Source: Myxococcota bacterium (lineage in GTDB: Bacteria > Myxococcota > UBA4151). Taken from it: a stretch of 12,768 nucleotides of DNA. Below the pieces are notes generated by a model that worked only from the letters and a program-made list of their open reading frames with translations, ran no database searches and was not told where the DNA came from. The position numbers and the translations under genes are program-made. Shown piece after piece: positions 1 to 12,768 of the stretch; within the stretch, counting starts at the first letter, position 1, and each line of letters begins with the position of its first letter. Location: positions 1-12,768 of the forward strand of contig JAYZBQ010000014.1 in assembly GCA_036338695.1 (NCBI GenBank), given 5' to 3'.

Positions 1-275
1 CTGTGATCGAGGCGTCGCGCTGGATCGATGACCACGACTGCCTGCTGCTGTTTGAGGATCACGCCAAAGATCCAACCTGCGAGGTGACGGAGGCGGTCCT
101 TGCCAAGGAGTGGCCGATCTACTTCTTTCATGATGATGGGCGCCTGGACCGAATCGAGTCGGTCGCTCAAGCCGCTGCCCTCAAAACCATAGCGAATCGA
201 GGCTACAACTTCTTTGGGCTGCACCCTGGTGGCTCGTTTGCGCGCCGCTTTGCGGCGAAAATGGGCGGATCATGA
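1..275 (+). CDS. C-terminal fragment of a hypothetical protein (5'-truncated by window edge); weak resemblance to the C-terminus of FkbM-family methyltransferases
   Basis: Frame is open from the window edge to TGA 273-275, which overlaps the ALDH start as ATGA (272-275), typical of translational coupling. The pattern LLLFEDH...WPIYFF...GYNFFG recalls the last strands of FkbM-like proteins, but no SAM-binding motif is inside the window, so the family call is weak. Confidence 0.6.
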   Translation, partial: VIEASRWIDDHDCLLLFEDHAKDPTCEVTEAVLAKEWPIYFFHDDGRLDRIESVAQAAALKTIANRGYNFFGLHPGGSFARRFAAKMGGS

Positions 276-1657
276 GCACGATGCAACGCACGTATTCGCC
301 GGTCGACGGCGCCTTGCTGGTGGAGCGTGAACTCGCAGGGAACTCGGCGCGTGAGCGGCTCCTCGATCGTTCGGTCGCCGCGCAGGCGCTGTGGGCGTCG
401 ACGCCGCTTGAGCGGCGCATCGAGCAGCTCGAGCGCATGGTCGATGCGTTCGTGGCGATGCGGGGCGAGATCGCCGAGGAGATCACGCGCCAGATGGGGC
501 GCCCCCTCGCACAGAGCCCATGGGAGGTCGACGGCTTTGAGCAGCGCGCTCGCGCCATGCTCGAGATGGCGCCGCGGGTGCTTGCGTCGATCCAGCCCGC
601 TCCCATCGATGGCTTCGAGCGCTGGGTTCAGCGCGAGCCGCTGGGTGTGGTGCTGACGTTGGCGCCTTGGAACTATCCGTATCTGTGCGCCGTCAACGCC
701 ATCATCCCCGCCATGGCGGCTGGTAACTCGGTGATCCTCAAGCACTCGGCGCAGACGCCGCTGTGTGCCGAGCGCCTTCAGCGGGCGGCTGACGAGGCGG
801 GGCTCCCCGACGGCGTCTTTCAGACGCTGCACTGCAGCCACGAGGCCGTCGCCGAGTTGGTCGCGGATCGGCGCGTGCAGTTCGTGGCGTTCACCGGCTC
901 GGTCGAGGGGGGCGTCGCAGTAAGCCAAGCCGCAGGCGGCCGCTTCATGGGGTTGGGGCTCGAGCTAGGCGGTAAAGACCCTGCCTACGTCCGGGCGGAC
1001 GCGGACCTGGCGCACGCTGCGCCCAATCTGGTTGAGGGAGCGTTTTTCAACGCAGGTCAGAGCTGTTGTGGGATCGAGCGGATCTATGTGCATCGGAGCC
1101 GTTTTGATGACTTCGTCGAGGCCTACGTTCAGGGCGTACGGGCGCTGCGCCTGGGCAACCCGCTTGATCGATCCACTGACCTCGGACCGGTGGTGCGGAA
1201 AGCCGCCGCCGATCATGTCCGTCGGCAGGTCGCGGCGGCGCAGGCGGCTGGAGCCACTCAGTTGGTCGACCACGCGCAGTTTGGAGCAGCCGACGCCGGC
1301 GTCTACCTGGCGCCGCAGGTGCTCGTAGGGGTCGATCACTCGATGGCGCTGATGCGTGAGGAGACCTTTGGGCCGGTGGTCGGCATCATGGCGGTGGACG
1401 ATGATGACGAGGCGGTCCGTCTGATGAATGACTCGCGCTACGGTCTCACCGCCAGCGTCTGGACGCCCGACCTCGAGGCTGCAGGAGCCATCGGTCAGCG
1501 CCTGCAAACGGGCACGGTCTTCGCCAACCGTTGTGACTACCTTGACCCCTATTTGGCATGGGTCGGGGTCAAAGACTCAGGGCACGGCTGCACGCTCTCG
1601 CCAGTCGGTTATGAGCAGCTGACGCGGCCGAAATCGTTTCACTTTCGCCGACTCTAG
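272..1657 (+). CDS. NAD(P)+-dependent aldehyde dehydrogenase, 461 aa
   Basis: Canonical ALDH motifs: PWNYP, LKHS, FTGS, catalytic Glu in LELGGKDP, catalytic Cys region FFNAGQSCC, EETFGP, YGLTASVW. Confidence 0.97.
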   Translation: MSTMQRTYSPVDGALLVERELAGNSARERLLDRSVAAQALWASTPLERRIEQLERMVDAFVAMRGEIAEEITRQMGRPLAQSPWEVDGFEQRARAMLEMAPRVLASIQPAPIDGFERWVQREPLGVVLTLAPWNYPYLCAVNAIIPAMAAGNSVILKHSAQTPLCAERLQRAADEAGLPDGVFQTLHCSHEAVAELVADRRVQFVAFTGSVEGGVAVSQAAGGRFMGLGLELGGKDPAYVRADADLAHAAPNLVEGAFFNAGQSCCGIERIYVHRSRFDDFVEAYVQGVRALRLGNPLDRSTDLGPVVRKAAADHVRRQVAAAQAAGATQLVDHAQFGAADAGVYLAPQVLVGVDHSMALMREETFGPVVGIMAVDDDDEAVRLMNDSRYGLTASVWTPDLEAAGAIGQRLQTGTVFANRCDYLDPYLAWVGVKDSGHGCTLSPVGYEQLTRPKSFHFRRL

Positions 1658-1665
1658 GAGCGCCG

Positions 1666-2835
1666 ATGTCGTGGACTGGACAATGGAACTTTCCCGCCCC
1701 CATTCGATTTGGATCGGGGGTCATCAAGCAGCTCCCTGATGCTTGCCGCGAGCTGGGTATGGAGCGACCGTTGCTGGTCACGGACCCAGGTTTGTCTGCG
1801 CTGCCAATCGTGGCTGAGGCGGTTGCGATCAACGCCGACGCGCAGCTCAAGACCGCTGTTTTCGATCAGATCCAAGGGAACCCGACTGGCGAAGATGTCG
1901 AGCGCGGCACGGCGGCTCTGCGGGCGGGCGCGCACGACGGCGTGATCGCTTTTGGCGGGGGCTCGGCGCTCGACGTCGGTAAAGCTATTGCGCTGATGGC
2001 GGGGCAGACGCGCCCGCTGTGGGACTTTGAGGATGTCGGTGACAACTGGAAGCGGGTCGACACCGAGGCGATGGTGCCGTGCGTTGCGGTCCCGACGACC
2101 TCAGGGACGGGCTCCGAGGTGGGGCGGTGTTCGGTGATTACGAACAAAGACGAGCACCGGAAGGTGATCATCTTTCACGCCAACATGGTCCCCGGGCGTG
2201 TGCTCTGCGATCCAGACCTGACGATCGGGCTGCCGGCCAAGCTGACCGCTGCCGTCGGGATCGATGCGCTGAGCCACAACCTCGAGGCTTTGTGCGCGCC
2301 CGGTTACCACCCGATGGCGGATGGCATCGCGCTCGAGGGCATCCGGCAGGTTCATTTGATGCTCGAGCGCGCCGTGCGCGACGGCGCCGACATCGAGGCG
2401 CGCGCCGGGATGATGGTGGCTTCGACGATGGGAGCTACAGCCTTTCAAAAGGGCTTAGGCGCGATGCACTCGATGAGCCACCCGGTGGGTGCGGTGATCG
2501 AGGCGCACCATGGGCTGTGCAATGCGGTGTTCATGCCCTATGTGCTCGGATTTAACCGCCCGATGATCGAGTCGCGCATGACCGACCTGGCGCGTTATCT
2601 CGACCTGCCTCATCCCAGCTTTGACGCCGTGCTCGAGTGGGTGCTTGGGCTGCGCGAGCGGCTCGGTATACCGCACTCAAGCGAGCGGCTCGGGGTGATC
2701 CGTGAGGAGATCCCGCTGCTCGCCCGGATGGGCGCGCAAGACCCCACGGCGGCAACCAATCCTGTCCCGCTTGATGAGGGCAACCTAACGCAGCTGTTCG
2801 AGGAGAGCCTGCGCGGCGAGGTCGTCGTTCGTTGA
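1666..2835 (+). CDS. Iron-containing (group III) alcohol dehydrogenase, 389 aa
   Basis: Motifs FGGGSALD, PTTSGTGSEV, DALSHNLE, GAMHSMSH and HHG (metal-ligand Asp/His set). AGGAG RBS at 1656-1660. Confidence 0.96.
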   Translation: MSWTGQWNFPAPIRFGSGVIKQLPDACRELGMERPLLVTDPGLSALPIVAEAVAINADAQLKTAVFDQIQGNPTGEDVERGTAALRAGAHDGVIAFGGGSALDVGKAIALMAGQTRPLWDFEDVGDNWKRVDTEAMVPCVAVPTTSGTGSEVGRCSVITNKDEHRKVIIFHANMVPGRVLCDPDLTIGLPAKLTAAVGIDALSHNLEALCAPGYHPMADGIALEGIRQVHLMLERAVRDGADIEARAGMMVASTMGATAFQKGLGAMHSMSHPVGAVIEAHHGLCNAVFMPYVLGFNRPMIESRMTDLARYLDLPHPSFDAVLEWVLGLRERLGIPHSSERLGVIREEIPLLARMGAQDPTAATNPVPLDEGNLTQLFEESLRGEVVVR

Positions 2836-4118
2836 GCGCTGCAGCGGCTCCGCACCCACCTAAAATGATCCGCTGGCGGCGGCGTATCTTCGCCTCGACG
2901 TGGCTCTGCTACGTGGGGCTGTATTTCGCCCGTAAGCCCTTCTTCATCGTCAAGAAGGACCTCGGTGATGCGATGCAGTTCAGCGCATCGGACCTCGGGT
3001 TGATCGGCAGCGCCTACCTGATCGCCTACGCGGCGGGCCAGTTCGTCGCAGGCAGCGCCGGGACACGCTTTGGGGCGCGCAAGCTGCTGCTCGTCGGTAT
3101 GGGCGCCTCGTTGCTCGCCAACCTCGTTTTCGGTGTCGCCAACGGCTTGTCTGCGTTCGTCGTCTTTATGGTGATCAACGGTTTGGGGCAGGCTACCGGC
3201 TGGGCGGGGACGGTCAGCACCATGGCGAACTGGTTCCGGCGCGCCGAGCGCGGGACCGTGATGGGGCTCTGGGCGACGTGTTTCCAGGTTGGCGGCGTGC
3301 TCGCCAACGCGCTCGCTGCGTACATGCTCGGCGCCTACGGTTACACCTACAGTTTCTTCGCCGGCTCCTGCGTGCTCTTTGTCATCCTCGTCTTCTTTGT
3401 CTTCAACCAGCGCAACCAACCCGAGGACGTGGGCTTGGCGCTGGCGGATCCGGACGCCGGCGAGGAGCCGGCCGAGGGGCTTGTGGGCGAGGGCGGGTGG
3501 ATGCAGCGGATCGGTTGGGACCGAGGCGTCCTGAACACCGTGCTGCTCGTCGGCGGGTTCTACTTTTTCGTCAAATTCATTCGCTATGCGTTGTGGTCCT
3601 GGGTGCCGTACTTCCTGGGCAAAAACTACGGGCTGCGCGGTGACGACGCCGGCTACATCTCGACCTTATTTGACCTCTTCGGGATCGCAGGCTGTATCGC
3701 TGCTGGCTACCTCTCGGATCGTTATTTCAACGGGCGCCGTGCGCGGATCAGCTTCTTCTTCTTGGTGGCGATGGGCGCCTCGTGCGTGCTGATGTACACG
3801 CTCGGGCAGGTGACGATGACGCTCTTTGCGCTCTCGATTGCGCTGGTTGGGTTTACGCTCTACGGACCGGACGCGCTGATGACCGGTGCTGCGGCGCAAG
3901 ATATCGGAGGGCGCGGCACGGCGCTGGCTGCTGGGATCATCAACGGTCTCGGCTCGGTCGGTGCGGTGGTCCAAGAGTTCGTCATCTCGGGGATGTATGA
4001 CGCCAGCGGCGGTGACCTCGGGCCGGTCTTTGGTCTGCTCGTCGGCGCCTCGCTGGGCGCGATTGTGAGTCTAGGGGTTGTCTTATGGCGAAACCGGAAG
4101 GGGCTGAGCGACGTATGA
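2832..4118 (+). CDS. MFS transporter, organophosphate:phosphate antiporter (GlpT/UhpT/SLC37-like) family
   Basis: About 12 hydrophobic segments; YFARK in TM1 and KFIRY in TM7 carry the two OPA-family Arg; WF..xERG and GYLSDR loop motifs. TTG start overlaps the upstream stop (TTGA 2832-2835). An alternative in-frame ATG is at 2865. Confidence 0.9.
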   Translation: MSAAAAPHPPKMIRWRRRIFASTWLCYVGLYFARKPFFIVKKDLGDAMQFSASDLGLIGSAYLIAYAAGQFVAGSAGTRFGARKLLLVGMGASLLANLVFGVANGLSAFVVFMVINGLGQATGWAGTVSTMANWFRRAERGTVMGLWATCFQVGGVLANALAAYMLGAYGYTYSFFAGSCVLFVILVFFVFNQRNQPEDVGLALADPDAGEEPAEGLVGEGGWMQRIGWDRGVLNTVLLVGGFYFFVKFIRYALWSWVPYFLGKNYGLRGDDAGYISTLFDLFGIAGCIAAGYLSDRYFNGRRARISFFFLVAMGASCVLMYTLGQVTMTLFALSIALVGFTLYGPDALMTGAAAQDIGGRGTALAAGIINGLGSVGAVVQEFVISGMYDASGGDLGPVFGLLVGASLGAIVSLGVVLWRNRKGLSDV

Positions 4119-6562
4119 CGAGTTCATTTCCAACGCAGGCGCGCTGCGTCGTCATCGGCGGCGGGATCGTCGGGTGTTCGGTCGCCTATCACCTGGGGCG
4201 GATGGGCTGGACGGACACGGTCGTGCTCGAGCGAGGACAGCTAACCTGCGGCTCAACCTTTCACGCCGCCGGGCTGGTGGGTCAGCTGCGCAGCTCAGCG
4301 AACATCACCCAGCTCCTCAAATACAGCGTGGAGCTCTATGACTCGCTGGAAGACGAGACCGGTCAAGCCACTGGGTGGAAGCAAAACGGTGGTCTGCGGC
4401 TCGCCTGCAACCAGGACCGGTGGACGGAGCTCCGCCGCCAAGCGACCACTGCGCGCAGCTTCGGGCTCCCTGTCGAGCTGTTGACGCCCAAGGAGGCGCA
4501 GGCGCTCTGGCCGCTGATCGATGCGTCGGATCTTGTGGGCGCCGCCTTCTTACCGACCGACGGTCAAGCGAACCCCTCCGACGTGACCATGGCGCTGGCT
4601 AAGGGCGCGCGCATGAGCGGCGTCCGTATCGTCGAGAACAGCCCGGTGCTTGGGATCAACACCCGCGACGGGCGCGTGACCGGCGTGCGCTGCGAGGCCG
4701 GTGAGATCGCCTGCGAGGTCGTCGTCAATTGCGCCGGGCAGTGGGCGCGTGAGCTCGGCGAGATGGTCGGCGTGGCGGTGCCGGTCTGCTCGGTGGAGCA
4801 CCAATACATGATCACCGAGGCGATGCCTGGCGTGACGCGCGACCTGCCGACCTTGAGAGACCCGGATCGGCTCATCTACTTCAAGGAAGAGGTCGGCGGC
4901 TTGGTGATGGGTGGCTATGAGCCCAACCCGATCCCTTGGGCCCCCGACGGGATCCCGCGCGGCTTTACGTTCTCGTTGCTCACGAGCAACTTTGATCACT
5001 TTGAGCAGCTGATGGAGCAAGCGCTCGCGCGGGTGCCGAGCTTGGTGGATGCGGGCGTCAAAGAGCTCATCAACGGACCGGAGGCGTTTACGCCGGACGG
5101 GAGCTTCATCCTCGGTGAATCGCCGCAGCTCAAGGGGTTCTTTGTTGGAGCGGGCTTTAACGCCTATGGGATCGCTGCGGCGGGTGGTGCCGGGCGTGCG
5201 CTGGCTGAGTGGATCGTCGCAGGCGAGCCGACGATGGACCTCTGGCCGGTCGATATTCGCCGCTTTCACAACCACCACGCAGACCCAGCCTGGGTGCGCG
5301 AGCGCACGCTTGAGCTCTACGCCAAGCACTACACGATGTCGTGGCCGCTCGAGGAGCATGACTCGGCGAGACCAAGACGCCAAAGCCCACTGTATGAGCG
5401 GCTGCGTCAGGCGGGTGCGTGCTTTGGCGAGAAGATGGGCTGGGAGCGGCCGAACTGGTTCGCGCCCGCCGGCGTGGAGCCCAAAGACGCGTACTCGTTC
5501 TCGGCTCCCAACTGGGAGGCTCATGTCCGGCGTGAGCACCTAGCTTGCCGAGGCGCGGCGGCACTGTTTGATCAGAGCTCGTTCGCAAAGTTTGAGGTGG
5601 CGGGCGCCGACGCTGAGGCGGCGCTGAGTTGGATCTGCGCCAACGATGTGCGCGGCGCGCCGGGGAAGCTGACCTACACTCAGCTGCTCAACGCACGCGG
5701 CGGGATTGAGTGTGACCTCACGGTCGCTCGCCTCGCCCACGACCGGTTCTACATCGTCACCGGCACCGGCTTTGCGACGCACGATTTCCAATGGATCCAG
5801 AGCCAGCTACCGCAAGGGATGGACGTGACGCTCACCGATCGGACGGAGGCCTACTCCGTGCTCTCCCTGATGGGACCTCGGGCGCGTGCGATCCTGAGCC
5901 AGGTGACCACCGACGACGTCAGCAACGAAGCCTTCCCCTTTGGGCAGACTCGGCGGCTTCGCTGCGGGGCATTCAACGTCCAGGCGCTGCGCGTGACCTA
6001 CGTTGGCGAGCTGGGGTGGGAGCTCCACGTGGCGGTCGAGCATGCCGGTGAGCTGTTCGACCGCTTGCATGCAGCAGGGGCAGCGCACGGCTTGGTTAAC
6101 GCCGGCTACCGGGCCATCGAGACGCTGCGGCTCGAGAAGGGGTACCGCGCCTGGCCCGGTGAGGTCGGACCGGACCACACGCCGCTTGAGGCTGGGCTCG
6201 CTTGGGCCGCCAAGCTGAAAACCGACGTCGATTTTCTGGGCCGCTCTGCGCTGGTCGAGCAGCGCGCGTCCGGGCTGACCAAGAAGATGGCCTGCTTGAC
6301 AGTTGATGATCCGAGCGTTCGGCTCTGGGGCCGCGAGACGATCTTGCGTGATGGTGAGCCGGTCGGGTGGCTCAGCAGCGCCGGTTACGGACACAGCGTC
6401 AACAAATGGATCGGGTACGGCTACGTCCGCAACGCGCAAGGGGTCGACAAAGCCTACTTGCAGTCCGGCGTTTATGAGCTGGAGATCGCAACGGAGCGGG
6501 TACCGGCGCAGCTGCAGCTCGGCCCGCTGGTCGATCCCAAGGGCTTGCGGATCCGCTCTTAG
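4115..6562 (+). CDS. FAD-dependent N-methylamine oxidoreductase with C-terminal GcvT (THF-binding) domain, dimethylglycine/sarcosine dehydrogenase family, about 815 aa
   Basis: GGGIVG dinucleotide fold; GSTFHAAGL (flavinylation His motif, His codon 4262-4264); LRDPD, GPEAFTPDG, GWERP, YVGELGWEL, LRLEKGY. The start is placed at ATG 4115 because it forms an ATGA overlap with the MFS stop; the track start at 4085 adds 10 aa. Confidence 0.95.
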   Translation: MTSSFPTQARCVVIGGGIVGCSVAYHLGRMGWTDTVVLERGQLTCGSTFHAAGLVGQLRSSANITQLLKYSVELYDSLEDETGQATGWKQNGGLRLACNQDRWTELRRQATTARSFGLPVELLTPKEAQALWPLIDASDLVGAAFLPTDGQANPSDVTMALAKGARMSGVRIVENSPVLGINTRDGRVTGVRCEAGEIACEVVVNCAGQWARELGEMVGVAVPVCSVEHQYMITEAMPGVTRDLPTLRDPDRLIYFKEEVGGLVMGGYEPNPIPWAPDGIPRGFTFSLLTSNFDHFEQLMEQALARVPSLVDAGVKELINGPEAFTPDGSFILGESPQLKGFFVGAGFNAYGIAAAGGAGRALAEWIVAGEPTMDLWPVDIRRFHNHHADPAWVRERTLELYAKHYTMSWPLEEHDSARPRRQSPLYERLRQAGACFGEKMGWERPNWFAPAGVEPKDAYSFSAPNWEAHVRREHLACRGAAALFDQSSFAKFEVAGADAEAALSWICANDVRGAPGKLTYTQLLNARGGIECDLTVARLAHDRFYIVTGTGFATHDFQWIQSQLPQGMDVTLTDRTEAYSVLSLMGPRARAILSQVTTDDVSNEAFPFGQTRRLRCGAFNVQALRVTYVGELGWELHVAVEHAGELFDRLHAAGAAHGLVNAGYRAIETLRLEKGYRAWPGEVGPDHTPLEAGLAWAAKLKTDVDFLGRSALVEQRASGLTKKMACLTVDDPSVRLWGRETILRDGEPVGWLSSAGYGHSVNKWIGYGYVRNAQGVDKAYLQSGVYELEIATERVPAQLQLGPLVDPKGLRIRS

Positions 6563-6659: not shown

Positions 6660-8624
6660 ATGCATCGAGCTTTCATGGTCTGTAGTCTGTTGGTCGTCGC
6701 CTCGTGCAGCGAGCAGGTGGTCGTTCGTGAGGTCGAGTCGACCTGCGGTAACGGCGAGGTCGAGGCGGGTGAAGCCTGCGACGACGGCAACACCCGCAAC
6801 GGCGACGCCTGCACCAGCGGCTGCGCCGTGGCGCAATGCGGTGACGAGATCACGCGTCAGGATCTCGAGCCCGGTGAAGAGGGCTATGAAGCCTGCGATG
6901 ATGGGAACAGCGACGACGCCGACGGCTGCCTCAGCGACTGCGCCTTGGCGCGTTGCGGCGACGGGGTGGTGCGCTTGGATCGCTCCGAGGGCGAGGAGGG
7001 CTTTGAGCGCTGCGATGACGCCAATGACGTCGACACCGATGACTGCCTCAACAACTGCCAACTGGCGCGCTGCGGCGATGGGGTGGTGCGCACCGACTTA
7101 GCCGAGGACGACGCGGGCTTTGAAGCGTGCGACGACGGCGATGAGGATGAGACCAACGGCTGCAAGAATGACTGCACGCCGCAGGTCTGCGGTGACGGCG
7201 TCGTCGGCTTGGGTGAGGGCTGCGACGATGGAAACGACGACCCAGACGACGACTGCGATGGCTGCCGTCCGAAGATCTGCGGCGATGGGATCCTCGGCCC
7301 TGAAGAGCTCTGCGATGACGGCAACGAGATCGACACGGACGAGTGCACCAACCAATGCGCCCCGGCTGCCTGCGGTGATGGAATTCTGCGTACGGACCTC
7401 GACGACGAGGGGAACCCTATCGAGGTCTGTGATGACGGCAACACCCTAGCGAGTGATGGCTGCACGGACCGCTGTCAGGTGGCGCAATGTGGCGACGGGA
7501 TCCTGCGCCGAGGCTTGCAGTGGGGCGCCGAGGGCTTTGAGGAGTGCGATGATGGCAACGCAGACGCAGCCGACGGCTGCTCGGCGACCTGTCTGCGCGA
7601 GGTCTGCGGCAACGGGATTGTGGATCCCGGCGAGGCTTGCGACGACGGGAACCGAAACGAGCTTGATGCCTGCACCAACCGCTGCCTAGCGGCCACGTGC
7701 GGTGATGGTCTGGTGCGGGAGGACCTCGAAGAGGACGCCGAGGGCTATGAGTTCTGCGACGACGGGAACGAGTCGAACAGCGACGCCTGCCTCGACACGT
7801 GTCGCGTGGCTCGGTGCGGCGACGGGTTCGTGCGTGAGGGTGTCGAAGGCTGCGACGACGCCAACGAGGTCGAGGCAGACGCTTGCACCAACGCCTGTTC
7901 GCTGGCGCGCTGCGGCGACGGGATCCAGCGTCAGGACATCGCTGAGGGCGCGCAAGGCTATGAGGCGTGCGATGACGGGAATCAGGTCAACTCGGACGGC
8001 TGCGTGGACGGGTGTCGGCTAGCAGTCTGCGGCGATGGGTTTGTGCGCGCTGGGCTAGAGGCATGTGACGATGGAAACAACGTCCAAACGGACGCTTGCC
8101 TCGACGACTGCGTCGCTGCTCGATGTGGTGACGGCGTGGTGCAAGCGGGTGTTGAGGACTGCGACGACGCCAACAACGACGACGACGACGCCTGCCTGAA
8201 CAGTTGCGCCGCAGCGCGCTGTGGAGACGGTATCGTGCGGGTCGGCGTGGAGGCGTGCGATGATGGCAACAACAACAACAACGACGGCTGCCGAAACGAC
8301 TGCTCGTCAGGCGTCAACGGCGACCTAGGCGGGATTGCTTTCTGCGGGTATGGAACATCGAACGGCCGGCGCGTGGGCATCTACAACAGCCGAAATCAGC
8401 CGCTGCAGCGGCACTACGGTCACGCCAACTGGGACAGCTTCTGCCGAGCCAACGGCTGGGCTCGATCGAACTCGGGACATGGTAATTGGAACCGCGATTG
8501 TGGCTGGGTGATGCAGAATTGGTCAAACTATGGTGTCGGCGGTGGCAATGGATCACACCGCAGCAACGATTACCGGCCCAATCGCGGCAGCGGCAGCCAC
8601 ATCTATATGACCTGTATCGAGTAG
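6660..8624 (+). CDS. Cys-rich repeat lipoprotein A (myxobacterial disulfide repeat / DUF4215-type), 654 aa: signal peptide, 15 four-Cys repeats, 102-aa head domain
   Basis: ATG 6660 follows GAGGT (6648-6652). N-terminus [16 protein letters not shown]16 is a lipoprotein-type signal. Repeats CG[DN]G..E.CDD[GA]N....D.C...C run 6744-8315, and the unique C-terminus 8316-8624. It aligns without gaps to the N-terminus of paralog B, which supports this start over 6303. Confidence 0.92.
6744..8315 (+). repeat. 15 tandem coding four-Cys repeats (30-39 aa) in lipoprotein A
   Basis: Unit lengths counted from the translation: 31,39,39,39,30,31,39,39,31,39,32,39,32,32,32. Confidence 0.93.
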
Positions 8625-8678
8625 GCGGCCGTGACCGCTTCGCCGGATGGGATCCGGTCGCTTAGGAAGGGAACGCTC

Positions 8679-11600
8679 ATGATGCGCCCAGTACTTCTGA
8701 CTGCAGTCCTCTTGTCGCTATCTTGCGGCGATCAAGTGATCGTTCGTGAGGTCGAGAATCAGTGCGGTAATGGATCGATTGAGGGTGACGAGGCGTGCGA
8801 TGACGGCAACGTCGTCAACGGCGACGGTTGCACCAACAGCTGCACGCTCGCGACCTGCGGCGATCAGGTCACCCGCGTGGATCGGGTGCTCGGTGACGAC
8901 GGTTTTGAAGAGTGTGACGACGGCAACAGCGAGGACAGCGACGGCTGCCTCTCGGACTGCACGCTTGCGCGCTGCGGCGATGGCGTCGTGCGACGAGACC
9001 GCTCCGAAGGGGATGAGGGCTACGAGCGTTGCGATGATGGGAACACGATCGATGACGACGCGTGTCTCACCAACTGCCTAGCCGCTGCCTGCGGTGATGG
9101 GATCGTCCGCACCGACTTGGCGGAGGGTGAGGAAGGCTATGAAGCCTGCGATGATGGCGATCGTGACCCCGCCAACAGCTGCAAGAACGACTGCACCCCG
9201 CAGGTCTGTGGGGACGGCGTGATCGGTCTGGGTGAGGGCTGCGATGACGGGAACGATGACCCGGACGACGACTGCGATGGCTGTCGCCCCAAAATTTGCG
9301 GTGACGGCGTCGTCGGCCCGGAAGAGCTCTGCGAGGACGGCAACGAGGTCGACACGGACGCGTGTACCAACCGATGCGCGCCGGGTGCGTGCGGCGATGG
9401 GATCGTGCGAACGGATGTCGACGATGAGGGAGAGCCCTTCGAGACCTGTGATGACGGCAACACCCTGGCGGGCGATGCCTGCACCGACTCATGCCGCGTT
9501 GCGCGTTGCGGCGATGGGGTCCTGCGTCGCGGGTTGCAGTGGGGCGCTGAGGGTTTTGAGGAGTGTGACGATGGCAACGAAGAGCCCGGCGACGGCTGCT
9601 CGGCGACCTGTCTTCGTGAGGCCTGTGGCAACGCCATCGTGGACCCGGGTGAGGCCTGCGACGACGGCAACCGGTCGGACCTTGATGCCTGCACCAACGC
9701 GTGTCAGGTCGCTGCGTGCGGGGACGGTTTCGTGCGTGAAGATCTTGCCGAAGACGCCGAGGGCTTTGAGCAGTGCGATGACGGCAACGCTTCGGAGAAC
9801 GACGAGTGCTTGACCTCCTGCCAGACGGCGCGCTGCGGCGACGGACAGGTCCACGATGGGGTCGAGGCTTGCGATGACGGCAACGGCGTCGATGCGGACG
9901 TGTGCACCAACGGCTGTGAGGTCGCACGCTGCGGCGACGGGATCCAGCGGCTTGACCTCGCCGAAGGGGCGCAAGGCTTCGAGGGCTGCGACGACGGCAA
10001 CGAGGACAACAGCGATGGATGCGTGGAAGGATGCGCCGTCGCACGCTGCGGCGACGGCTTCACTTTTGACGGCCGCGAGGAGTGCGATGACGCCAACGCC
10101 GACAACTCGGACGCCTGCGTCGAGGGCTGCCTTCGGGCGCGCTGCGGCGATGGGTTTCAACAGGACGGGCAAGAGGGTTGCGATGACGGCAACGCCGACA
10201 ACACGGACGCCTGTGTCGACGGGTGTCGTGTCGCTCGCTGCGGCGACGGGTTCACTCAACAAGGCGTTGAAGCCTGCGACGACGCCAACGCCGACAACAC
10301 GGACGCCTGCGTTGAGAACTGCCGCTTAGCGTCCTGCGGCGATGGGTTTGTTCGGCGCGGCGAAGAGGCTTGCGATGACGGGAATCAGCTGAACTCGGAC
10401 GCCTGCTTGACGACCTGTGTCGTCGCGCGCTGCGGCGATGGCTTCGTGCAAGCGGGTCAAGAGGGCTGCGACGACGCGAATGAAGACAACACGGACGGGT
10501 GCGTCGAGGGCTGCCGTGTGGCGCGCTGCGGCGATGGCTTCTTGCAGGCTGGGCGCGAGGCTTGTGATGACGGCAACGAAGACAACTCCGACGCGTGCGT
10601 CGTGGGCTGCCGGGTCGCCCGCTGCGGCGACGGCTTTGTTCAGGCGGGTCGAGAGGCTTGCGATGACGCCAACGCTGACAACACGGACAGCTGCCTCAAC
10701 GTGTGTCAGGCGGCGCGCTGTGGGGACGGGTTCGTGCGAGCGGGCGAGGAGGCTTGCGATGACGGCAACGAGAGCAACCGGGACGCGTGCCTGAACACCT
10801 GCGCGGCGGCTCGCTGTGGCGACGGACATGTCCAGGAGGGCGTCGAGGCTTGCGATGACGCAAACAACGCAAACGACGACGCCTGCCTCACCAACTGCGT
10901 CGCCGCACGCTGCGGAGATGGTCACGTCCAGCGCGGTGTCGAGGGCTGCGACGACGCCAACAATGTTGACACGGACGCGTGCCTCAGCACCTGCGCGGTG
11001 GCGCGCTGCGGCGACGGTCATATTCAAGCAGGGGTTGAGGCGTGCGATGACGCCAACAACCTGAACACGGACGCCTGTCTCACCACCTGTCAACGTGCGC
11101 GCTGCGGTGATGGTCATGTTCAAGCCGGTGTGGAAGCCTGCGATGACGCCAACAACAGCAACGCCGACGCCTGCCTGACGAACTGTTCAGCAGCTCGCTG
11201 CGGCGATGGTCATGTTCAAGCCGGGGTTGAAGCCTGCGATGACGCGAACAACAGCAACGCCGACGCGTGCCTCACCAACTGCACCGCTGCGCGCTGCGGT
11301 GACGGGCATGTTCGGGCGGGCGTAGAAGCGTGCGACGATGGGAACAACTCGCAGACGGATGGTTGCCTGACCAACTGCACGGCGGCGCGCTGCGGCGACG
11401 GTCACGTTCAAGCGGGGGTGGAAGCCTGCGACGACGCGAACAACAGCAACCCCGACGCGTGCCTGACGAATTGCAGAGCCGCTCGCTGCGGTGATGGTCA
11501 CGTGCAAGCGGGGGTTGAAGCTTGTGATGACGCCAACAACAACAACGGCGACGCGTGCCTAACGAACTGCTCGGCGGCTCGCTGCGGTGATGGACATGTC

Positions 11601-12179
11601 CGGGCTGGCGTCGAAGCGTGCGACGACGGCAACAACTCGCAGACGGATGGTTGCCTCACCAACTGCACGGCGGCTCGCTGTGGTGATGGGCATGTCCGAG
11701 CAGGGGTCGAGGCTTGTGACGACGCCAACAACAGCAACACGGACGCGTGCCTGACGAACTGCGCGGCGGCGCGGTGCGGTGATGGGCATGTCCGGGCTGG
11801 TGTTGAGGAGTGCGACGATGGCAACAACAACGACAACGACCTGTGCCGCAACAACTGCACATCCGGTCGTAACGGCGACTTAGGCAGCATCGCCTTCTGC
11901 GGCTATGGAACGGCAAACGGTCGGCGTGTCGGGATCTACAACAGCCAGCTCAACCCGCTTCAGCGGCATTACGGTCACGCCAACTGGGACAGCTTCTGTC
12001 GCGCCAACGGTTGGGCGCGCTCGAACACGGGCTACGGCAATTGGAACCGGGACTGTGCGTGGGTGATGCAGAATTGGTCGAACTGGAACGTGGGTAACGG
12101 GGGCGGACCGCAGCGGAGCACGAGCTACCCACCGAATCGGCGGACCTCGACGCATATCTACATGACCTGTATTGAGTGA
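8679..12179 (+). CDS. Cys-rich repeat lipoprotein B, 1166 aa: signal peptide, 31 four-Cys repeats, 102-aa head domain; paralog of A
   Basis: AGGAAGG RBS-like run at 8664-8670 before ATGATG (8679/8682). N-terminus [16 protein letters not shown]16 (imperfect lipobox). Repeats run 8763-11870 and the head 11871-12179. Confidence 0.93.
10047..11870 (+). repeat. 19 uniform 96-bp (32-aa) tandem coding repeats in lipoprotein B
   Basis: TGC/TGT-GG starts recur every 96 nt from 10047 (checked at 10815, 11295, 11583). Consensus is CGDG[FH]V[QR]AGVEACDD[AG]NxxNxDACLxxCxxAR. Confidence 0.95.
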
Positions 12180-12284: not shown

Positions 12285-12290
12285 GAGGAG
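12285..12290 (+). promoter_or_regulatory. Shine-Dalgarno for lipoprotein C
   Basis: GAGGAG 5 nt upstream of ATG 12296. Confidence 0.8.
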
Positions 12291-12295
12291 TGAAG

Positions 12296-12768
12296 ATGCG
12301 AAATTTGGTGGTGTGTGCGATGCTTCTTGGGGTGGCTTGTTCGCCGCCTGCTACGGTCAGCGAAGGCCGCTGCGGGGACGGCCGGATCAGCGCCGGTGAG
12401 ACCTGCGATGACGGCAACGCGATCGACGAAGATGCGTGCACCAACGCCTGCCAAAACGCGACCTGCGGTGACGGCATCGTACGCGGCGATCTGGACCCAG
12501 GCGTGGTGGGCGCTGAAGGCTGCGATGACGGCAACGCCGAGGACAACGACGCCTGCCTGAGCTCGTGCCAGCCGGCGACCTGCGGCGACGGCATCCTGCG
12601 CACGGACTTGCTCGAGACCGATGAAGGCTATGAGGGCTGCGATGACGGCAACGACGAGCCCTGGGACGGCTGCACCAACGACTGCGTGGTGGTCGGCTGC
12701 GGTGACGGCGAGATTCAGCCCGAGATGGGCGAGGTCTGCGACGACGGCAACGAGGTCGACACCGACGC
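12296..12768 (+). CDS. Cys-rich repeat lipoprotein C (3'-truncated by window edge; absent from ORF track)
   Basis: Manual translation: MRNLVVCAMLLGVA-C15-[142 protein letters not shown]... There is no stop before the window end, and it has a strong RBS. Confidence 0.93.
   Translation, partial: MRNLVVCAMLLGVACSPPATVSEGRCGDGRISAGETCDDGNAIDEDACTNACQNATCGDGIVRGDLDPGVVGAEGCDDGNAEDNDACLSSCQPATCGDGILRTDLLETDEGYEGCDDGNDEPWDGCTNDCVVVGCGDGEIQPEMGEVCDDGNEVDTD

Follow-up and report, generated by a model that had tools for sequence, protein, structure and literature searches.

Tandem stalk-and-head genes of a marine Myxococcota bacterium as probable members of a modular attachment library of predicted surface lipoproteins

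The TIGR02232/DUF4215 repeat (PF13948) is catalogued yet almost unstudied. The available part of a report on a diatom adhesive trail protein names it, with function unknown (10.1101/2023.03.06.531300), and weak similarity to it has been noted for surface proteins of Peribacteria in the accessible portion of PMC4736985; the repeat is not mentioned in the accessible portion of PMC9579167. Two better described systems bear on its sequence and its arrangement. The Ca2+ site of the ADAM disintegrin shoulder (Ds) has the consensus xCGNxxxExGExCD, as given in the available text of PMC4885070, and periscope proteins are described in the available sections of Whelan 2022 (PMC9704523) by highly identical tandem repeat coding sequences, with domains of ~50–165 amino acids (aa). 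Here we describe two adjacent genes, A and B, that consist largely of this repeat. They lie in a 12,768-nucleotide stretch of DNA (the window), which is the entire contig C14 (JAYZBQ010000014.1) of a Myxococcota genome, G000 (3.36 Mb, 99 contigs, 93.6% complete). A literature search, with subscription journals and bioRxiv supplements outside its coverage, returned no paper on this expansion of the repeat.

We consider it probable (about 0.64) that A and B are tandem paralogs in a modular attachment library of predicted surface lipoproteins, because ligand-binding or interaction classes account for the commonest of the annotated heads in the genome. The architecture, the size of the family, the variation of the neck under a fixed base and the exchange of heads between stalks are all observed.

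Gene A (6660..8624, + strand) encodes a predicted lipoprotein of 654 aa with 15 repeats and a 102-aa head. Gene B (8679..12179, +; its ATG is at 8679 or 8682) encodes one of 1166 aa with 31 repeats, likewise ending in a 102-aa head. Both have Cys16 and a first repeat that begins at residue 29. The predicted signal peptide with the lipobox runs to Cys16 at 6660..6707 (+) in A (V-A-S-C) and at 8679..8726 (+) in B (S-L-S-C), and this Cys is nearly invariant among 35 family members. Units 1–12 have the same lengths in the two proteins (31,39,39,39,30,31,39,39,31,39,32,39 aa) and occupy 8763..10046 (+) in B. In A, repeats 1–6 (6744..7370, +; lengths 31,39,39,39,30,31) form a base that is constant family-wide, with repeat 1 an exact copy of the ADAM Ds Ca2+-site consensus, and repeats 7–12 (7371..8027, +) are fixed inside the A/B clade and variable across paralogs. 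The neck of 32-aa units has 3 units in A (8028..8315, +) and 19 in B (10047..11870, +), so that 1166-654 = 512 = 16x32. The heads, at 8316..8621 (+) and 11871..12176 (+), have four conserved Cys and no family match. The original prediction had claimed identical layouts and an exact difference of 16 x 32 aa, and every number it stated has been reproduced; the layout of anchor, stalk and head is supported as well. On alignment of A with B, the 12-unit base is 74% identical in aa and 75% in nucleotides (nt), and the head 79% in aa and 75% in nt. Because identity at third codon positions is only 56% in the base and 53% in the head, the duplication is old, with no recent copying.

The 96-bp units of the B neck are mutually divergent, at 52–91% nt identity (mean 68%, maximum 91%). 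Two blocks of closer units, in which units 14 and 17 are alike at 87/96 bases and units 12, 13, 15 and 16 at 79–84, fit stepwise unequal recombination. Eight public runs that contain the window DNA, all of them marine, estuarine or salt-marsh, have been compared. The A neck is spanned by single contigs from runs X1 (7310-8687) and X6 (7608-8419), and the B neck is tiled by overlapping contigs. No unit-sized indel occurs among the indels and joints listed for these runs, which are represented by contigs only, with rare variants dropped, and one of which is perhaps the source sample. Since the B units are divergent, collapse or expansion of this neck by the assembler is unlikely. More generally, it is very improbable that misassembly of the repeat array created the length difference: the assembler did break at 141-bp repeats in this family, but independent contigs cover both necks, the units differ from one another, and an ortholog also has a 3-unit neck.

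The orthologous loci bear on which parts of this arrangement are conserved. The family set comprises six genomes, namely G000 and its relatives G001–G005, with G001 and G003 among the congeners. At this locus G002 has another member of the family, and the contigs of G004 and G005 break there, so these three are uninformative for the pair. In G001, the gcvT-like gene is followed by a short gene with the identical 12-unit base, a 3-unit neck and a different head, which gives an hhalign probability of 0.7% against the A/B head and has weak SRCR matches (scores 0.78–0.82). The B-like gene of G001 has a neck of at least 29 units across a 141-bp contig overlap and ends in an A/B head of ~80% identity. 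In G003, the gcvT-like gene is followed by a gene with this base and a neck of at least 5 units; beyond a gap, the gene that adjoins the conserved downstream neighbour carries the alternative head of G001 on a neck of at least 23 units, one of which is 39 aa long. One and the same 12-unit base pattern is therefore shared by A, B and three orthologs in G001 and G003, with necks of 3, 19, 3, at least 29 and at least 5 units.

In the G001 and G003 orthologs, length variation is restricted to the 32-aa neck block, as had been anticipated, and head type and neck length are uncoupled. The idea that the neck extends while the base stays constant holds for A, B and the three orthologs, in which the base is kept under necks of 3 to at least 29 units; among paralogs only units 1–6 are constant. 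The further proposal, a fixed short/long pair selected to display one ligand-binding tip at two heights, did not survive the comparison and is distinctly unlikely. A and B do share head (79%) and base, and a short/long tandem with a 3-unit first neck is retained in G001. However, the head on the short G001 gene is not homologous to that of A, G003 lacks a 3-unit gene directly after its gcvT-like gene and bears the alternative head on a neck that is long, and the B neck of 19 units corresponds to at least 29 in G001. A same-head short/long pair is absent in 2/2 informative congeners, and lengths in the family form a continuum of 13–31 repeats. One tip at two heights is not the conserved feature; the common head of A and B would instead be the current combination of one lineage, not a conserved two-height device.

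The genome-wide family gives the context in which A and B are best read. G000 contains 99 repeat-bearing pieces of open reading frames (ORFs) with 1164 repeats on 222,678 bp, or 6.6% of the genome; the pieces are stop-to-stop ORFs whose frames include slight upstream DNA, and some genes are split across contigs. First-look TIGR02232 candidates, which are not copy numbers, reach 273–362 per Mb in 6/6 family genomes, versus 39–56 in six other high-count genomes, the six computed out of 55 searched. Two kinds of stalk have been distinguished, type I with the N-terminus and base of A and B (34 ORFs) and type II (eight ORFs). Type I genes that end in a head number 32; they have 13–31 repeats, the B stalk being the longest of those counted, and about 17 head classes, defined by Pfam together with automatic clusters (clustering alone over-linked heads via multi-domain proteins). 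Their first six units have the same lengths in 28/32, and the first twelve make 20 patterns in the 32 genes, with variation in units 7–12. The layout that A and B share therefore appears less special than it does at first sight, given how many paralogs have the same first six unit lengths.

The heads on the 32 type I stalks include 12 fibrinogen/COLFI-like, 4 glycine-rich ALK/LTK-like, 2 RCC1, 1 LamG, 1 weak AgmC-N-like and 2 A/B-type domains, and the other 10 have no assigned family; NF040941 was confirmed in both fibrinogen/COLFI-like heads tested. On a tree of units 1–6 (30 rows from G000 and 3 from relatives, leaving out two genes with a deviant base and two without a head), sister stalks bear unrelated heads. 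The fibrinogen label requires 9 changes versus a shuffled mean of 10.1, with 144/500 shuffles as low, and a single clade for fibrinogen heads is rejected (approximately unbiased test, p-AU 3e-5). All head labels taken jointly show slight clustering, with 5/200 shuffles as low. Head type does not follow the stalk tree. Some members deserve separate mention. L075:51-1172(-) (G000 C59) combines a type I stalk with a head weakly like the N-terminal domain of AgmC, a gliding protein (69 bits, cut-off 275), and the ORF L094 (G000 C70:2-8395), 2798 aa or longer, consists nearly throughout of repeats (~75, mostly of 39 aa) and has no C-terminal head. Two type I genes, C87:2952(-) and C89:6918(-), have the same signal peptide and almost the same upstream DNA, with different stalks and heads; the likeness of their 5' parts would be either 5' conversion or strain alleles. 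The type I 5' ends at C21:29074-29388 and C25:3087(-) are 95.6% identical across 297 bp.

A recent exchange of heads is seen directly downstream of B. Gene C (12290..12768, +) is cut by the contig end and has the second stalk type; synteny places its LamG head on contig C37. One stretch of 141 bases forms the end of contigs C14 and C13 and the start of C28 and C37, and synteny joins C14 to C37 and C13 to C28. The stalks on C28 and C37 differ at 14/756 bases and are followed, from the last stalk Cys, by unrelated heads, which are LamG in gene C and a 94-aa Cys-rich domain at the other locus. Over the parts compared (window 12290-12768 and C37:1-1456 against C13:1-512 and C28:1-1045), the stalk is 95–98% identical to that of the other locus. 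No gene C-like gene has been found behind B in G001. Gene C is a recent chimera, its stalk copied from another locus.

The A/B head, a basic domain (+5) with many aromatic residues, has four invariant Cys across 18 sequences. The B head, modelled on 11868-12176, gives a confident model, with a predicted local distance difference test (pLDDT) value of 91.9 and a predicted TM-score (pTM) of 0.86. A sequence search of the PDB returned 0 matches at E<=10, Foldseek none at E<=0.001, and a search of the Atlas a top score of 0.80, which is a lead only; the B head thus has no clear PDB match. The best VIA-align match has Z 3.9 (69 residues, root-mean-square deviation 3.0), and no C-type lectin-like or SRCR family is among the matches listed. 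A C-type-lectin-like or SRCR-like head, suggested by a motif resemblance, is unsupported by these structure searches. The missing matches are no proof of a new fold. The head is rare: it occurs in 6/61 genomes, all in the family of the window and with one weak broken match, and has 11 representatives, one of them spurious, among 1.84 billion sequences. P0009, whose repeat match looks spurious, and L057, a short partial match, have been dropped from the set. P0007 (E 1e-10) and P0011 (E 3e-7) are distant homologues of the head in proteins without the repeat, and P0007 resembles a eukaryotic secreted protein.

The A/B head is mobile and is found on several carriers. Its other carriers are type II stalks, an RCC1 protein that holds it internally, and thrombospondin-type-3-like and choice-of-anchor-D proteins that end in it. 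In L001:1-2370 (G000 C19) it is flanked by the RCC1 propeller on one side and, on the other, by a C-terminal domain without an assigned family. At L055:3186-8330, three tandem type II genes with stalks of 31,39,39,33,32,39,39,31,39,38 aa end in three different heads, the last of which is of the A/B type.

The stalk itself belongs to a single family. The repeats of A and B score 235 and 473 bits with the NCBIfam-type TIGR02232 profile (cut-off 20.8) and 207 and 349 bits with DUF4215 of Pfam (cut-off 27), the sole Pfam family matched in the two proteins. Each unit has four Cys, and stalks contain 22–26% Asp/Glu and 12% Cys. The unit length and the positions of C, D, N and E are strictly retained over all neck units. 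The exact ADAM Ds consensus is found in 1/15 repeats of A (repeat 1) and 0/31 of B, with two repeats of the relaxed form in each, and in 36 repeats across G000; the core CG[ND]...ExC[DE]D is present in 15/15 and 31/31. A Foldseek search with a model of four neck units returned 10 rows, all PAPP-A or ADAM chains and none significant (E 3-10; poor model), two of which superpose 32 residues at 1.5-1.8 A. A profile of the base has no real PDB relative. The stalk units are therefore likely calcium-bound, disulfide-bonded beads.

This composition raises the question of whether the stalk could be the main function, as a polyanionic, Ca2+-loaded and disulfide-braced coat that acts as a shield against grazers or phages or binds metal, with the heads secondary. 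The acidic residues and Cys content, the ~1,160 repeats in the genome and a conservation of units 1–6 far above what a passive spacer would need are in keeping with such a coat. Such a coat is nonetheless rather unlikely: the heads are diverse and have remained intact, they often fall into ligand-binding classes (C-type lectin, LamG, fibrinogen-like, RCC1), and conservation of the A/B head extends throughout the family.

Export and maturation of the proteins can be outlined from the gene content. The N-termini of A and B have a basic N-region, a hydrophobic stretch and Cys16, and the lipobox of A is canonical. Because the Cys is conserved and Lgt and LspA are present, a lipoprotein signal in A and B is plausible. 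Lgt, LspA, LolA, GspD and six DsbA-like matches were found in G000. Type II secretion can export folded lipoproteins. A literature search found nothing on lipoprotein sorting in myxobacteria. VKOR is present in 4/5 relatives, and DsbB was not found in the 6/6 family genomes searched. In G001 (L099, contig C10), VKOR is fused to a DsbA-like domain and another C-terminal domain in a protein of 639 aa. A 678-aa ORF of G000 at C48:5018-6787(-) has three tandem DsbA-like (Thioredoxin_4) domains and might serve a heavy disulfide load.

In the mechanism that we propose for the attachment library, a chain of small acidic four-Cys modules, likely disulfide-bonded and Ca2+-bound, would hold a C-terminal head, exchangeable and with a predicted binding role, off the outer membrane. 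The protein would be exported by Sec, lipidated at Cys16 by Lgt and LspA, disulfide-bonded in the periplasm and delivered to the surface, possibly via type II secretion. The neck would grow and shrink as its 96-bp units recombine unequally, over evolutionary rather than population time, and heads would be swapped via recombination in the last repeat. The whole set would probably serve for attachment to a broad range of particles, prey or host surfaces.

Several points weigh against this reading. The lipobox of B is non-canonical, with Ser at -3, and neither DsbB nor VKOR was found in G000 at its 93.6% completeness. The A/B head is without a match to any known adhesive family, with none in Pfam and NCBIfam. 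The 32-aa neck units are one residue longer than the ADAM Ca2+ consensus, with the core kept. The G001 and G003 loci are each joined across a contig break. In the base tree 14/30 inner branches are open, and conversion among stalks could scramble the tree too. Finally, the four-unit neck model is of low confidence (pLDDT 50.5, pTM 0.29), gives no rise per repeat and demonstrates no rod. With no confident geometry between repeats, and with congener necks of 19, at least 23 and at least 29 units, one with an internal 39-aa unit, neck length could reflect near-neutral repeat turnover in a flexible or compact chain whose length sets no defined height. We regard this as unlikely, since the neck units adhere strictly to their length and to their positions of C, D, N and E, and since a neck of 3 units has persisted across species; a failed prediction on Ca2+- and disulfide-dependent modules says nothing for compactness.

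In the window, searches of the encoded proteins with Pfam and NCBIfam identify four metabolic genes upstream of A, followed by A, B and the cut gene C. The four form a conserved catabolic operon (272-6562) for an aldehyde dehydrogenase, a 4-hydroxybutyrate-dehydrogenase-like iron-containing alcohol dehydrogenase (Fe-ADH), an organophosphate-type transporter of the major facilitator superfamily (MFS) and an FAD/GcvT-type dehydrogenase. The operon is followed by a repeat lipoprotein gene in 4/4 genomes of the genus examined.

The locus offers a natural length series on one base (3, 19, at least 23 and at least 29 units) together with natural head swaps, which make the rise per repeat, the dependence on Ca2+ and the function of the head directly testable. 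It also supplies a head of ~100 aa that is modelled with confidence and lacks a clear relative among solved structures. Should the attachment library prove real, it would be a clue to food-finding in an uncultured marine myxobacterial lineage.

Compared with known systems, the repeat family is known, and what is new is the scale of its expansion, a recent head swap at a precise junction and a head without a family match. Relative to other TIGR02232/DUF4215 proteins, the density in the window's family is about five-fold or more higher than in the genomes compared, and here the stalks have a stereotyped six-unit base, exchanged heads and a head with no family match. The modules resemble the ADAM Ds Ca2+ site II and the Cys-rich module of PAPP-A in their consensus motif and in weak but exclusive structural matches. 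In ADAM and PAPP-A, however, the module is single and part of eukaryotic proteases, whereas here 15–31 copies stand in tandem, with longer loops in the 32- and 39-aa units.

Among surface proteins, fibrillar adhesins, as characterised in the available text of Monzon and Bateman 2022 (PMC9210967), are likewise large single chains with an anchor, a repeat stalk of variable repeat number and a distal domain. A large repetitive stalk is present in A (15 repeats) and B (31), and sibling heads in G000 include lectin, LamG and fibrinogen-like domains. Unlike the adhesins described in that text, A and B have a predicted N-terminal lipid anchor, disulfide modules of 30–39 aa and no known adhesive domain; DUF4215 was found neither in one supplement of that paper nor there by a literature search. 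As in the periscope proteins covered by the available sections of PMC9704523, the repeat number under the tip differs between relatives. The A/B units differ from those proteins in being 32 aa long and of lower identity (mean 68%, maximum 91% nt), and no copy-number variation within a population appears among the differences listed for the eight runs, compared as contigs only.

The MAT fibres of Bdellovibrio, as presented in the available part of Caulton et al. 2024 (PMC10769870), are also a mosaic surface repertoire with diverse tips, and the likeness is one of functional analogy only. They are trimeric, phage-like and belong to a predatory lineage, and by Pfam A and B share no MAT domain with them. 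Tentatively, and with more doubt than attaches to the attachment library itself, this small-genome marine Myxococcota family might devote ~7% of its DNA to a combinatorial surface library of about ninety lipid-anchored, Ca2+- and disulfide-dependent stalks of graded length, with tips still exchanged at a precise junction and one tip of undescribed fold; such a library would recognise prey or particles in seawater and be the monomeric equivalent of the MAT repertoire in Bdellovibrio.

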